A stretch of DNA of 64,000 nucleotides, from positions 27,579-91,578 of the forward strand of contig CAZQLW010000001.1 in NCBI GenBank assembly GCA_964594395.1, in the 5' to 3' direction. The translations under genes and the position numbers were made by a program. The notes under the pieces were generated by a model that was not told where the DNA came from, ran no database searches, and was given only the letters and a program-made list of their open reading frames with translations. The first letter of the stretch is position 1. Every line of letters starts with the position of its first letter. Below are positions 6,310 to 48,480 of this stretch, in pieces. Source of the stretch: an uncultured Methanosarcinales archaeon. Lineage in GTDB: Archaea; Nanobdellota; Nanobdellia; Woesearchaeales; GW2011-AR9.

Positions 6310-7773
6310 TTATTTTAAAGCTTTATTAACATCTTTCTCTTTCCAGCCAGAACTTAACAAAGTTTCTTTAATTTTTTGGCCAGAAATTCCTTTCTTCATT
6401 TCTTTTTCAATATAATCTTTAATCTTGGAAGGTTTATTTTTTTGAGGTTGAATTACTAAGAAATAAACTAATACGCCGATAATAATTAACAAAATTAATG
6501 ATCCAATTATGATTAACGGCATTTTTATTCCATCCCAAATACTAACAGAGCCAGCCCATTCAGACGTTGTTGATTCTTCAACTTTAACTTCTGATTCTAA
6601 ATCAGTTTCATACTCTTGACCTTCAGATCCTAAATCTAACTGATTTTCGTCTTTTAAGATGGTTGAATCTTCTTCATCACATGATTTCTCAAGATCTGGT
6701 TTTAATTTAGTTGTTTCACAAAAATGTTGATCAGCACAAGTTCTTGTTTGTTTATCATTCTGGCAGTCATTCCATTTACCACAAACCCAATCTTCAACAC
6801 ATTTTTGACAATCTTGGGTTTCTGTCTTTGTTGCTAGGCAATCATTTTTATCTGTACAGGTTTTGGTTTGTTTAAGTTCTTTATTACAATATGACCAGCT
6901 TGTACAGATTAAATTTGGTTTACAGCTGGAAGTTTTAGAAGTTGTACTTTTAACAACTTTTTTATTTTCGTCCAAAAAGTCTGTTACTTCTGTCCTGATT
7001 TTAGTAACATCATCTATTAAATTTTCAAGGTCCTCAATTAAAGTTTCATTTTTTGGAGATTCCTGTTTAAGCAAATTTGTGTAATCTTTAGCTTGATTTT
7101 TAAGAGATTTCAAATCTCTTCTTAATTCTTGCAAGCCATCTTTATAATCTTCGAAAGTTTTCTCTTCTTCTTCTTCTTCTTCTAAGTCTTCATCTTCTAA
7201 GTCTTCATCTTCCTCTTTTAAGTCATCATCTTCATCTTCATCTTCATCTTCATCACTGGTTACATTTACATTTTCTTCAACTTTAACACCTTTCAGTTCC
7301 AAATAGCCTTCTTTATATTCATCATAAAATTCTGAATAGTTATCCAATTGTTCTTCAAACCATTCATAACTATAATTTATTGGTTCGGTAGTAACTGTTG
7401 TTACTATTTCTTCTTCAACTTCTACTACTTCTGTTGAACAACCTGGGGAATTAATACAGATTTTTACTGTTTTTGAAGTACCATCAGCACATTTAACTTC
7501 AAGATTATAAGAACCTGAATAAGGGTCAGAATTTGTATTATAATAAGTATCCCAGCTACCGTAACCCTGCTCAACAACAATTAAGTCAGTATAAATGTTA
7601 GACATTAAAAATAATGAAGTCCTTGCACAATCAGAAATGGATATCTCTACTATTTTATTAGAAGAATATTCGTCCTTATCAGTTTCAATTTCAACCGCGT
7701 TAACTAAACTTACAAGGATTAAAATTGTCAAGATCAAGAAAAGTATATTTTTAAGAGTCTTCATCATATTCAA
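6310..7773 (-). CDS. secreted surface protein with poly-acidic tract, Cys-rich repeats and C-terminal TM anchor
   Basis: N-terminal signal peptide. (D/E)n tract encoded by a GAA/GAT microsatellite-like run. Repeated C-x-W-x-C...C-x-D-x-x-C modules. C-terminal TM followed by basic tail. Confidence 0.5.
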   Translation of the reverse strand: MNMMKTLKNILFLILTILILVSLVNAVEIETDKDEYSSNKIVEISISDCARTSLFLMSNIYTDLIVVEQGYGSWDTYYNTNSDPYSGSYNLEVKCADGTSKTVKICINSPGCSTEVVEVEEEIVTTVTTEPINYSYEWFEEQLDNYSEFYDEYKEGYLELKGVKVEENVNVTSDEDEDEDEDDDLKEEDEDLEDEDLEEEEEEEKTFEDYKDGLQELRRDLKSLKNQAKDYTNLLKQESPKNETLIEDLENLIDDVTKIRTEVTDFLDENKKVVKSTTSKTSSCKPNLICTSWSYCNKELKQTKTCTDKNDCLATKTETQDCQKCVEDWVCGKWNDCQNDKQTRTCADQHFCETTKLKPDLEKSCDEEDSTILKDENQLDLGSEGQEYETDLESEVKVEESTTSEWAGSVSIWDGIKMPLIIIGSLILLIIIGVLVYFLVIQPQKNKPSKIKDYIEKEMKKGISGQKIKETLLSSGWKEKDVNKALK

Positions 7774-35223: not shown

Positions 35224-36816
35224 ATGGTAGATAAAGGTACTTGTTTAAGGTATTATAAACGTGAAGATGTCCAGAAAGCGATGGTTGAACATGCTCAAAA
35301 TAAAGAGCTTGGTGTTCGTTATGGCGATGGTTTTGGTAAACGGCCAGACGTTTTAATGTATCCTCAGGATGTTTTAGAGTTAGCTAAACAGGGGGTAACT
35401 TCTTTTCATGTTAGTGAAGAAGTTTGGGAAAATCCGTTAATTTTAAACAGTGATATGAACAGAAGAGAACAAGACGAGTTACGTATTGGTTGGGATTTAG
35501 TTCTTGACATTGATTGTCCTGATTGGGAAATATCTAAGTTAACTACCTATTTGTTTATCAAAGCTTTAAAAGAAAATGGGATTAAAGAAATTTCTTGCAA
35601 GTTTTCTGGAAATAAGGGGTTCCATATCGGTGTTCCGTTTGAAGTGTTTCCTAATGAAGTTGTTGGAAAAAAAACAAAAGACATTTTTCCTGAAGGACCA
35701 AAAAAAGTTGCTCAATATTTGTTAAACACTATCACTACTCGTTATGTTCAAGTAAAAGATAACAAAATATTTTTTGATAATGATTATTCTTTTAGTTTAT
35801 CTGAATTGAAAGAAAAGTTTGGTGAACAGCAATTTTTAATTAACCAGTGTGCTAGTTGTCAAAAAGAAATAAAAAAAATTAAAGAAGAAGTGATAGAATT
35901 TATTTGTCCTAAATGTGAGGAGAGGGTAGTTGCTGACCAGGAATTTCTTAAATGTAAAAAATGTAATATCTTGATGAACAAAATGGAACAAACAAAATCT
36001 TTATGTCCCTGCGGTTCAAATGAATACAATTCTATTTTTGACCCTTTATCTATTATTGAAGTTGATACTATTTTAATTTCATCACGTCATTTGTATCGGA
36101 TGCCATACTCGTTACACGAAAAATCTGGATTGGCAAGTTTACCAATAATTCCTAAACAAGTGATGGATTTTGAAAAAAGTATGGCTCACCCTGATAAAAT
36201 TGTAGTTTCTGGAATTAAGTTTCTTGATAGGAACGTTTTGAAAGAATCTGCAAGGATGTTGTTAGTTAACGCTCTTGATTTTGAAGTCAAGATTGAAGAG
36301 GATCGAGATTTTGGTAAAGAAGTTAAGTTTGAAGAACTAAAAATTGAAAGTCCGATTAATGAAGAGTTTTTTCCACCATGTATTAAAAAAGTTCTTGATT
36401 CTGGCTTGGAAGATGGTAAGAAACGGGCAATTTTCATTTTAACAAATTTTCTTGGCAAGATTGGTTGGAACAAGAAAGAGATTGAAAATTATCTTTTAAA
36501 ATGGAACAAAGAAAAGAATTCTGGGAATTTACGTGACAATTATATTGTTAGTCAGATGAAAAGTTTTACTGCTGGTGCAAAATTACCGCCGAACTGTGAT
36601 AATGAAGCTTATTATACGGGAATTGGTATCTGTTTACCTGATACTTTATGTAAAAAAATTAAAAATCCAGTAAATTATACCATTATCAGATGGAAAAGAC
36701 ATTTAAGGGATAGAGAAGAAGATAATCGTCAAAGCAGTAAAAGTAAAACTAAAGAAAATAAAAGTGAAGATAATAAGAATTCTGAAAAAAATAAAAAAGA
36801 AGAAAAATTTGAGTAA
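35224..36816 (+). CDS. priS: DNA primase small subunit PriS fused to a PriL-CTD-like FeS domain
   Basis: PriS catalytic motifs DLVLDIDCPD and SGNKGFHIGVPF, and a Zn-ribbon (CxxC...CxxC). The C-terminal FFPPCIKKVL...PNC...ICLPDTLC resembles the PriL C-terminal 4Fe-4S domain. Confidence 0.75.
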   Translation: MVDKGTCLRYYKREDVQKAMVEHAQNKELGVRYGDGFGKRPDVLMYPQDVLELAKQGVTSFHVSEEVWENPLILNSDMNRREQDELRIGWDLVLDIDCPDWEISKLTTYLFIKALKENGIKEISCKFSGNKGFHIGVPFEVFPNEVVGKKTKDIFPEGPKKVAQYLLNTITTRYVQVKDNKIFFDNDYSFSLSELKEKFGEQQFLINQCASCQKEIKKIKEEVIEFICPKCEERVVADQEFLKCKKCNILMNKMEQTKSLCPCGSNEYNSIFDPLSIIEVDTILISSRHLYRMPYSLHEKSGLASLPIIPKQVMDFEKSMAHPDKIVVSGIKFLDRNVLKESARMLLVNALDFEVKIEEDRDFGKEVKFEELKIESPINEEFFPPCIKKVLDSGLEDGKKRAIFILTNFLGKIGWNKKEIENYLLKWNKEKNSGNLRDNYIVSQMKSFTAGAKLPPNCDNEAYYTGIGICLPDTLCKKIKNPVNYTIIRWKRHLRDREEDNRQSSKSKTKENKSEDNKNSEKNKKEEKFE

Positions 36817-43484: not shown

Positions 43485-43492
43485 TTTAAATG
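43485..43492 (+). promoter_or_regulatory. TATA-like box (TTTAAATG) about 27-33 nt upstream of the first GCCGAGG acceptor copy
   Basis: Position is appropriate for an archaeal promoter driving the tRNA-Ser region from 43518. Confidence 0.3.
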
Positions 43493-43586
43493 ACATTCTT
43501 TTGATAGATTTGTTCATGCCGAGGTCGCATACTCTAAAGCAATTGCATCGCTTTTGGTCGCGCCCTCTCTGTTCATAAACATTCAC

Positions 43587-43704
43587 GCCGAGGTCGCATA
43601 ATCTGGTACATTTTTGCTTAATCATGGCACAAATGCAGAAAATTGCGCTAGCCTGCTAAGCTGGTTTCCTCACGGATATCTGGGTTCAAATCCCAGCCTC
43701 GGCG
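43587..43704 (+). tRNA. tRNA-Ser(GCU) candidate with roughly 33-nt insertion (putative non-canonical intron) in the D-arm region
   Basis: Acceptor GCCGAGG/CCTCGGC plus discriminator G. T-arm CTGGG-TTCAAAT-CCCAG. Anticodon arm CTAGC-CUGCUAA-GCTGG. Long variable arm (15 nt). D-loop-like AATCTGGTA. Total 118 nt implies an insert between the D-loop and anticodon stem. Confidence 0.45.
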
Positions 43705-43789
43705 TTGTGAAACTAGCCGGGGATGGTTCCAGAAACTTTGTTTCTGATATCAGCCTCGGCGTTTCTTTTTTAATTTTTTTTAAATAGAA

Positions 43790-48257: not shown

Positions 48258-48343
48258 CTGTTTATAAATTTAAAAAAAATGTGGACGGCAGATAAGCAGA
48301 AATCTTTGGATTTCTTTACCTGCCTTCATTATTTTAAAAAAAA

Positions 48344-48480
48344 TGTGGACGGCAGGGTTCGAACCTGCGTAGACACTAAGTCACAGGGTGTCTTTTAATC
48401 ATAGCAGTTAAGCTCATTACACCCGTGAACGGCTAGGATTACCCTAAGCCCTGCCCGTTTGACCACTCCGGCACGTCCAC
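48344..48480 (-). tRNA. tRNA-Leu(UAG) with 53-nt canonical-position intron
   Basis: Minus-strand acceptor GTGGACG/CGTCCAC plus A73. D-stem CCG/CGG with 11-nt loop. Anticodon stem CAGGG/CCCTG with loop CUUAGG|intron|A. Long variable arm. T-arm GCAGG-TTCGAAC-CCTGC. Confidence 0.7.

Follow-up and report, generated by a model that had tools for sequence, protein, structure and literature searches.

The closest described counterparts of the locus treated here are the non-canonical bulge-helix-bulge (BHB) introns of archaeal tRNA genes, which occur in Thermoproteales, Nanoarchaeota, and other DPANN archaea and are processed by EndA and RtcB. Position 20/21 in the D loop is among their listed sites (PMC4090602), and DPANN splicing endonucleases with the L3 loop insertion go together with increased disruption of tRNA genes (PMC5829648). 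Split and permuted tRNA genes are known from Nanoarchaeum equitans, Caldivirga, and Thermofilum. At the borders of integrated elements, partial tRNA genes are found (SSV-type and pNOB8-type att sites, Caldiarchaeum tRNA-Thr, tycheposon islands); those that stem from integration are pervasive in Archaea (PMC9897764), and in Prochlorococcus serial integration has produced arrays of partial tRNAs (10.1101/2020.12.28.424599). Where a tRNA end recurs as a short copy, it is usually read as debris of such mobile-element integration. The locus described here, a tRNA-Ser(GCU) gene flanked by copies of its own two ends, lies in a 64-kb stretch of an archaeal contig (CAZQLW010000001.1), hereafter called the window. 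Positions 43587-43704 of its plus strand, on which all features of the locus lie, very probably form a contiguous tRNA-Ser(GCU) gene with an intron in the D loop. The locus as a whole is probably one transcription unit for a functional tRNA-Ser(GCU), with flanks that represent partial duplications of the tRNA ends kept as local hairpins.

The tRNA gene is recognizable arm by arm. By inspection of the sequence, GCCGAGG (43587-43593) and CCTCGGC (43697-43703) make up the acceptor stem, G43704 is the discriminator, CTGGG-TTCAAAT-CCCAG (43680-43696) is the T arm, and CTAGC-CTGCTAA-GCTGG (43648-43664) is the anticodon arm, which holds the anticodon GCU at 43655-43657; the variable region has 15 nt (43665-43679). 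Exon 1 (43587-43607) holds tRNA positions 1-20 and exon 2 (43642-43704) positions 21-73. Folding of the 119-nt precursor gives a cloverleaf in which the D arm is extended (z = -3.7), and none of 200 shuffles folds equally well. Once the intervening 34 nt (43608-43641) are excised, the sequence has what defines a type II tRNA-Ser, namely a 7-bp acceptor stem, a T arm with a TTCRANY loop, a long variable arm, a serine anticodon, and G73, and ARAGORN calls it as tRNA-Ser(gct) of 84 nt. Three Woesearchaeota tRNA-Ser(GCU) genes that lack introns match the spliced tRNA at 81-86% identity. The D arm of the spliced tRNA, GCATAATCTGGTATTGCG, is the same as the uninterrupted D arms of many Woesearchaeota tRNA-Ser genes (e.g. 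L008, L017) retrieved by the pattern of the tRNA 3' end. An initial annotation of the window had proposed a type II tRNA-Ser(GCU) with a non-canonical D-arm intron of about 30-34 nt, and both proposals hold, with all stems in the places proposed and an intron of 34 nt at position 20/21. The same annotation had held that an ARAGORN run without a tRNA would refute the proposal. Technically this is what the default run returned, as it reports no tRNA anywhere in the window; the tRNA-Ser is missed because the program does not model D-loop introns, and the spliced sequence is called. Rfam likewise gives no match at the locus at its gathering threshold, and at a permissive threshold its tRNA model covers 43635-43696 with 25.3 bits, under the gathering score of 29. 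To judge by sequence comparison, the gene is regarded as functional and its intron as a typical, though poorly surveyed, representative of a known class.

The intron is framed by a splice motif of the relaxed type. In the precursor fold, the D stem is GCA/UGC, and a helix H of 4 bp (TCTG 43602-43605/CAGA 43636-43639) is followed on its 5' strand by the 3-nt bulge GTA (43606-43608) and then by the intron helix h' (CATTT 43609-43613/AAATG 43631-43635). On the 3' side, AAA (43640-43642) faces the unpaired TAA at 43599-43601 (U13-A14-A15). The splicing endonuclease cuts after the second base of each 3-nt element, so that the intron corresponds to 43608-43641; because of a repeated A, its boundaries can be shifted by 1 nt with an unchanged product. 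The 5' splice site would thus lie in the 3-nt bulge and the 3' site in the AAA of an internal loop of the precursor. By the known pathway, excision by the splicing endonuclease and joining by an RNA ligase would re-form the D loop AAUCUGGUA. The BHB expected at the exon-intron junctions is present in part: the relaxed HBh' motif is formed, with a canonical 5' site, and its excision restores the tRNA exactly, whereas the strict hBHBh' form, in which two 3-nt bulges on opposite strands are separated by a 4-bp helix, is not. In the classification of Marck and Grosjean, the relaxed BHB is reportedly the usual form at non-canonical positions.

The motif was compared in three sequences, namely the window, the closest relative of the window genome (L068, contig CAZXEM010000020.1, which alone serves for all tests of conservation below), and a third genome, L030. 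In both relatives, an insertion is found at exactly 20/21 with the same H-bulge-h' geometry, while the intron interiors and the h' helices are unrelated in sequence. Helix H shows a compensatory change from UCUG/CAGA to CCUG/CAGG, in which a U to C exchange in the exon of L030 is paired with an A to G exchange in the intron. The exons of L068 are 100% identical to those of the window, and its intron interior differs. The window intron therefore agrees with the known archaeal non-canonical introns in its listed position, in its 4-bp helix with a 3-nt 5' bulge and an intron helix beyond, in a motif that is kept while the intron sequence varies, and in a content that differs between close relatives. 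It differs from them in the 3' site, which falls in an internal loop, and in its marine, Woesearchaeota-like host, as no dedicated survey of such hosts was found in the literature. The window intron is otherwise without unusual traits.

Other introns were encountered in the related genomes. The tRNA-Ser(GCU) of L068 (reverse strand, ~2150-2310) has an additional 47-nt intron at the canonical position 37/38, and a tRNA-Leu of the same contig (plus strand, ~1160-1300) has an extra intron in the anticodon-stem region. These extra introns show that intron content varies between very close genomes, and similar differences have been reported for Caldiarchaeum (PMC3293823). The tRNA-Ser introns of Aenigmarchaeota (L027, L052, L069, L064, and L004) contain C/D-box-like motifs, TGATGA ... 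CTGA, as do the tRNA-Ser leaders in L002 and L080; they adjoin a stretch complementary to the anticodon-loop region of the tRNA itself. Such motifs resemble the C/D-box guide in the euryarchaeal tRNA-Trp intron.

On both sides of the gene, only terminal segments of the tRNA are copied (19-23 nt on the 5' side and 13-22 nt on the 3' side), and each copy is paired with an inverted complement, which turns each flank into a hairpin. In a 271-nt fold, the upstream unit (U1) and the downstream unit (U3) are each paired with themselves and the cloverleaf is untouched. The upstream side begins with a TATA-like box, TTTAAAT (43486-43492), which is centred about 29 nt 5' of the first GCCGAGG (43518) and may serve as the promoter. 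It is followed by the copy of the tRNA 5' end, ttcaT plus GCCGAGGTCGCATA (43513-43531), which corresponds to tRNA positions -5 to +14. A repeat search extends it to a direct repeat of 23 nt (43513-43535/43582-43604; 91% identical, spacing 69), which bears out the earlier observation of a 5' copy 69 nt upstream behind a TATA-like box. In the U1 hairpin (43521-43567), GAGG.TCGC of the copy pairs with GCG.CCTC in an outer stem, and AAAGC/GCTTT forms the inner stem. Apart from the end copy, the tail of U1 (43532-43581) is no more tRNA-like than shuffled sequence. The spacer between U1 and the tRNA, TCTGTTCATAAACATTCAC (43568-43586), is 19 nt long and leaves no room for a promoter of its own, in contrast to the promoter-like spacers of about 55 nt in the arrays described below.

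The history of U1 can be read from the synteny around SepF, for which only L068 and a truncated contig, L097, are informative. L068 aligns closely with the window over the end of SepF and the shared intergenic DNA, and the order of SepF, tRNA, and the region of a pilin-like gene is kept. Its conserved promoter block, ttaatagaaaaacatttaaatg...gatagattt, directly abuts the tRNA: the block ends in ...gatagatttattcac and is joined to GCCGAGGTCGCATAATCTGG with no U1 in between. Compared to it, the window carries a 69-nt insertion bounded by the 19-nt repeat ttcaYGCCGAGGTCGCATA. In L097 (88% SepF identity), the tRNA follows right behind the promoter and has neither the 5' copy nor the D-loop intron. 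In three SepF homologs of about 80% identity (P0003, P0004, and P0006), no tRNA follows SepF. Since U1 is absent from L068 and L097, it is most simply taken as a recent gain; loss through recombination between the repeats could also account for the difference.

Hairpins of the U1 type recur in other archaea. In other Woesearchaeota, between one and six units, repeated in tandem about every 105 nt, lie upstream of tRNA-Ser genes with various anticodons (L108 3137-4005, L109, L111, L014, L017/L051, L019, L025, and L113-L118). In an array unit, a spacer of about 55 nt, AT-rich and with a TATA-like box, stands at a fixed distance before GCCGAGGTCGCATA and a C; a hairpin follows, whose final segment, GTCGCGACCTC, is complementary to tRNA positions 4-11. 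The hairpin combines an outer stem that is conserved with an internal loop, a bulged base, an inner stem that covaries, and a loop that varies, and the window U1 shares this architecture with 19 other distinct Woesearchaeota units. When 14 of the 20 units are aligned (13 units of other contigs and that of the window), 97.1% of the cells are paired and four of the five inner-stem pairs have changed on both sides. The covariation score is 0.209 vs 0.065 in shuffles (0 of 500 reach it; slid controls ≤0.057), a value that derives from only about four independent stem types. Behind the hairpins of other lineages, the spacer motif ATAAACA/ATAAGCA recurs. A metagenome scan for the U1 pattern returned 11 loci, and all nine that were inspected sit upstream of tRNA-Ser.

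The arrays also vary in ways that bear on their origin. L108 has five units and L109 has three within the same flanking sequence, and spacer types are swapped between two tRNA-Ser loci on one contig. In L111, L112, and L116, the resident tRNA has GCTGAGG and the intact 5' copies also read GCTGAGG, with others decayed to gctaaagg; the match of intact copies to the resident tRNA points to a local, recombinational origin. Among the fetched loci, copies of 10 nt within 200 nt of ARAGORN tRNAs occurred 15 times upstream and seven times downstream, and never on the wrong side. Rfam finds only tRNAs and one signal recognition particle (SRP) RNA on the array-bearing loci.

In GC-richer archaeal metagenome-assembled genomes (L003, L012, L035 at 1621-2483, L072, L029, L082, L007, and L022), arrays of complete acceptor-stem minihelices were observed. 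These GCCGAGG...CCTCGGC units enclose variable inner hairpins, are separated by spacers of 21-25 nt, and number up to six upstream and one or two downstream of tRNA-Ser; the array of L035 begins just after an SRP RNA gene (1335-1601). The tRNA-proximal unit in these genomes ends in ...CACCTCAGCG-YTCATAAGCA...CTCAC, which is similar to its counterpart in the window, ...CCCTCTCTG-TTCATAAACA-TTCAC. An earlier pass for exact 12-nt copies within 300 nt surfaced a further array in L032 (~6495-7000). There, at least two tandem repeats follow a tRNA-Met that has an encoded CCA; every repeat ends in a 25-nt copy from the T loop to CCA and in the same T-rich trailer, which includes a hairpin. Arrays of end copies thus also occur outside tRNA-Ser and tRNA-Leu.

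The downstream unit of the window is the stronger of its two hairpins. The U3 trailer hairpin (43709-43765) has about 23 bp in the stems GAAAC/GTTTC, GCCGGGG/CCTCGGC, TGGT/ATCA, and CAGAAAC/GTTTCTG, and contains an inverted repeat with 21-nt arms (43716-43736/43740-43760). Its fold has z = -5.7 (0 of 200 shuffles as good). The 3' arm is an exact copy of the tRNA 3' end, CAGCCTCGGCGTT (43751-43763), which runs from the end of the T stem through the 3' acceptor strand and the discriminator to two nucleotides beyond. It forms the last 13 nt of a direct repeat of 22 nt with 82% identity (43685-43706/43742-43763; spacing 57). The recurrence of the tRNA 3' end, as first reported, is thus real over 13 nt exactly and 22 nt approximately; a degenerate copy of the 3' half is not found beyond that, because the interior of U3 (43705-43750) is no more tRNA-like than shuffles. 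U3 also has no T arm. A T run, TTTCTTTTTT, follows the hairpin immediately and belongs to the T-rich stretch TTTCTTTTTTAATTTTTTTT (43762-43781), the presumed archaeal oligo-T terminator; there is no T run directly 3' of the tRNA-Ser itself. Between the window and L068, the trailer and U3 are identical at 57 of 57 positions vs 92 of 113 in the adjacent non-coding DNA (Fisher p = 1e-4).

The only other tRNA of the window has a counterpart of U3. With its intron option, ARAGORN finds a tRNA-Leu(UAG) on the minus strand (48480-48344) whose anticodon adjoins a 53-nt intron. Within 48261-48355, the last 12 nt of this tRNA and a T8 run are found again 64 nt downstream, where they form the 3' arm of a 16-bp hairpin. 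In comparison with L068, the stems and the copy of this unit are identical at 41 of 41 positions vs 36 of 61 for the loop, the trailer, and the following DNA (p = 2e-7). Each of the two tRNA genes in the window is therefore accompanied by a conserved hairpin that incorporates a copy of the 3' end of that gene. The ~10 kb and ~6 kb of DNA beyond the two ends of the window yielded no further tRNAs. The interiors of the two U3 units show no significant likeness, and a shared stem AGAAAY...RTTTCTG is enriched, but its pattern was defined only after both sites had been seen and is given no weight here. The tRNA-Leu unit lacks a 5' acceptor strand, so that a minihelix is not a shared property. On these comparisons, U3 is read as older and probably under constraint, and U1 as recent and dispensable.

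In the proposed explanation, a single transcript would run from behind the TATA-like box to the T run that follows 43762, and RNase P-type and tRNase Z-type activities would remove the 69-nt leader and the trailer of about 60 nt. The end copies may stem from recombination between tRNA genes of class II (Ser, Leu), whose ends are highly repeated. Their complementary arms could persist since a surplus acceptor strand that is locked in a local hairpin is kept from competing with the real acceptor stem, and U3 would in addition give the transcript a hairpin-plus-oligo-T end. This specific role of the hairpins, in strand sequestering or termination, is advanced only tentatively and is held with somewhat less than even confidence. 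With regard to termination, the G+C-closed U3 hairpin of 23 bp followed by TTTCTTTTTT resembles hairpin-plus-U-run terminators and the oligo-T termination of archaeal tRNA genes. It differs from them in that its 3' arm copies a tRNA end and that, at the tRNA-Leu, the T8 run precedes the unit. A simple terminator scan did not flag U3, because its stem is interrupted, and archaeal termination is not known to require a hairpin.

Several points weigh against this explanation. At the predicted 3' splice site, there is a 3x4 internal loop and no clean bulge, which makes the motif a relaxed one. Hairpin terminators are not general in this region, and a T8 run is already present before the tRNA-Leu hairpin. 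The U1 hairpin of the window is weak (z = -1.9) and has one U.C mismatch in the outer stem, and the family-wide U1 hairpins with their promoter-like spacers hint at a more specific function or a mobility mechanism. The tests of conservation depend on one sister genome. Splicing, the ends of the transcript, and the presence of RNase P in this organism are predictions. The stronger signals come from the constrained U3 units of the window and the covarying arrays of related genomes, among which the window U1 is a degenerate and recent example. As far as the literature was searched, end-copy hairpin modules of this kind appear to be undescribed.

The covarying arrays raise the prospect of an unrecognized class of elements tied to the class II (Ser, Leu) tRNA genes of DPANN and neighboring archaea, which is unlikely on the present balance but deserves some weight. 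Its units would consist of a tRNA terminal segment and the inverted complement, in some lineages with a promoter of their own, and would multiply, shrink, and move between paralogous loci. They might act as folded recombination sites of miniature cassettes or be expressed as mimics of tRNA ends, for instance as decoys for integrases, nucleases, or tRNA-processing enzymes. For the cassette role, the attC sites of integrons offer a comparison of shape only, in that outer stem, unpaired spacer, extra-helical base, inner stem, and variable loop follow each other in the same way, and tandem arrays of variable length stand beside a fixed site. The U1-type units differ from attC in having no RYYYAAC/GTTRRRY boxes and no IntI-like gene, and their "cassettes" are promoter-like spacers of about 55 nt without open reading frames; the likeness is to the general picture of attC and is not a test of membership.

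Closely related, and by a shade less probable, is the reading in which the end-copy hairpins are functional themselves, either as small RNAs that mimic tRNA ends (acceptor-stem decoys or enzyme substrates) or as folded recombination sites of cassettes. It would account for the TATA-like spacers at a fixed distance, the arrays of one to six units with five in L108 against three in L109, the swapped spacer types, the conserved and covarying U1 architecture, and the conserved U3. The complete minihelix arrays on both sides of tRNA-Ser in GC-richer archaea, one of them beside an SRP RNA, fit it as well. Among the seven array-adjacent genes, however, Pfam identifies no recombinase, and the units match no Rfam family. 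The missing 5' acceptor strand of the tRNA-Leu unit, the interiors of U3-Ser and U3-Leu that are not significantly alike, and the post hoc definition of the AGAAAY/RTTTCTG motif also speak against it, as does a window U1 that is degenerate and absent from the sister genome.

Distinctly unlikely is an origin of U1 and U3 as attL/attR-type remnants of mobile elements that entered by recombination at the two ends of the tRNA gene and were later deleted almost wholly. The direct copies of tRNA ends, each on its matching side, and the repeats that flank inserted DNA are as expected of integration. So is the presence or absence of U1 between closely aligned genomes, along with their differences in intron content, and in Caldiarchaeum tRNA-Thr, a 5' fragment and the gain of an intron occur alongside a 1.8-kb insert that bears a recombinase (PMC3293823). 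Partial tRNA genes at integration borders share with the locus the matching-side direct copies, the polymorphism between close relatives, and the arrays. Here, in contrast, just 41-50 nt lie between the window copies, with the two inserts put at 50 and 44 nt, and no kb-scale insert separates tRNA-Ser from an end copy in 83 genome loci. Neither an element nor an integrase was found; the copies are 13-24 nt long, lie 41-105 nt from the gene, and form a covarying or conserved hairpin with an inverted complement. Pfam identifies no integrase among seven array-adjacent genes (L014, L108, L111, and L017) or three window genes; the neighboring genes have housekeeping roles, and those identified in L108, L111, and L017 comprise a Na+/H+ exchanger, an RNase H-like protein, HD-domain and HIT proteins, an FKBP isomerase, and ribosomal protein L31e. 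Scans of viral contigs for the U1 pattern and for the tRNA 3' end gave zero matches. In addition, U3 is constrained instead of decaying and the U1 hairpins covary, and an element that integrates at the 5' end would need to supply a promoter, which the DNA directly upstream of the window tRNA does not bring. The decayed att duplication considered in the initial annotation is accordingly only weakly supported: the att-like orientation of the copies stands, and the tiny inserts, the lack of a detected integrase, and a U3 that is not decaying count against it.

A split, nested, or trans-spliced tRNA, in which the flanks serve as outer exons, the 69 nt as a second intron, or leader and trailer as a BHB stem, is very improbable. 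The first copy is placed exactly where a leaderless tRNA would begin behind the promoter, GCCGAGG at 43518 could pair with CCTCGGC at 43754, and split tRNAs exist in Nanoarchaeota (PMC4090602). Like described split or permuted genes, the locus has fragments with promoter-like upstream sequence in a DPANN host; it differs from them in that the gene is complete and contiguous, that the fragment tail pairs with itself, and that no BHB lies between the fragments. Two specific geometries were drawn by inspection and rejected. If the 69 nt were a second intron, both junctions would lie in identical sequence, which is why the 4-bp BHB helix would have to be self-complementary; only GGUC is, and the neighboring helices fail to form. 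A leader/trailer BHB through TTCAC/GTGAA leaves a G73-U-U bulge with no second bulge 4 bp away. U1 and U3 pair with themselves in the 271-nt fold, U3 has neither a T arm nor a tRNA-like interior, and the flanks cannot be one outer gene, because L068 has U3 without U1. The two further suggestions of the initial annotation gain no support either: for an extended leader-trailer processing helix, U1 and U3 are self-paired in that fold and no BHB could be drawn by hand at the ends, and for a relic of a split tRNA, the gene is contiguous behind one promoter and occurs in L068 without the upstream copy. Judged by these comparisons, leader and trailer are not tRNA halves, and the hairpin interiors are unrelated to tRNA.

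A pseudogene, that is, a tRNA-Ser copy inactivated by the D-arm insertion amid duplication debris, is scarcely credible, for although standard detectors miss the unspliced sequence and its Rfam score is below the gathering threshold, all stems are intact, the inserted sequence folds into a splice motif, the exons match those of L068 at every position while the intron interior differs, the locus is invariant in at least 11 assemblies, and the intron site is conserved with a compensatory change in three species.

The locus and its host can be placed as follows. At least 11 metagenome contigs (JGI, ENA, and Logan), assembled independently, agree at 100% over the whole intergenic region of 352 nt, which excludes an assembly artefact. 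The contigs derive from metagenomes of the marine water column (e.g. JGI 3300007510, 3300008627, and 3300009008). The window encodes aminoacyl-tRNA synthetases, a primase with fused small and large subunits, a family X polymerase, and SepF, and has a G+C content of ~30%; the gene downstream of tRNA-Ser begins with an archaeal pilin-like signal. SepF homologs with a source name are labeled Candidatus Woesearchaeota, Nanoarchaeota, or Candidatus Nanoarchaeia. The domains of both primase subunits are combined in a single open reading frame (35224-36816), which is taken to be a feature of Nanoarchaeota and other DPANN lineages and served here only as a taxonomic hint. To judge from this gene content, the host is a cellular, marine, Woesearchaeota-like DPANN archaeon.

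The finding bears on the annotation of such genomes, as both tRNA genes of the 64-kb window escape default ARAGORN. These missed genes fit the published view that the tRNA sets of DPANN archaea seem incomplete owing to disrupted genes (PMC5829648). The tRNA-Ser(GCU) of Woesearchaeota-like archaea, as represented by the window, L068, and L030, is an added lineage with a conserved intron at 20/21. If the class of elements sketched above were real, the window would hold one young 5' unit and two constrained 3' units. If the hairpins are functional, they would either add a further level to the architecture of tRNA transcripts in genome-reduced archaea or constitute a novel kind of tiny recombining element, and either role, if true, would bear on how tRNA genes get disrupted and rearranged.

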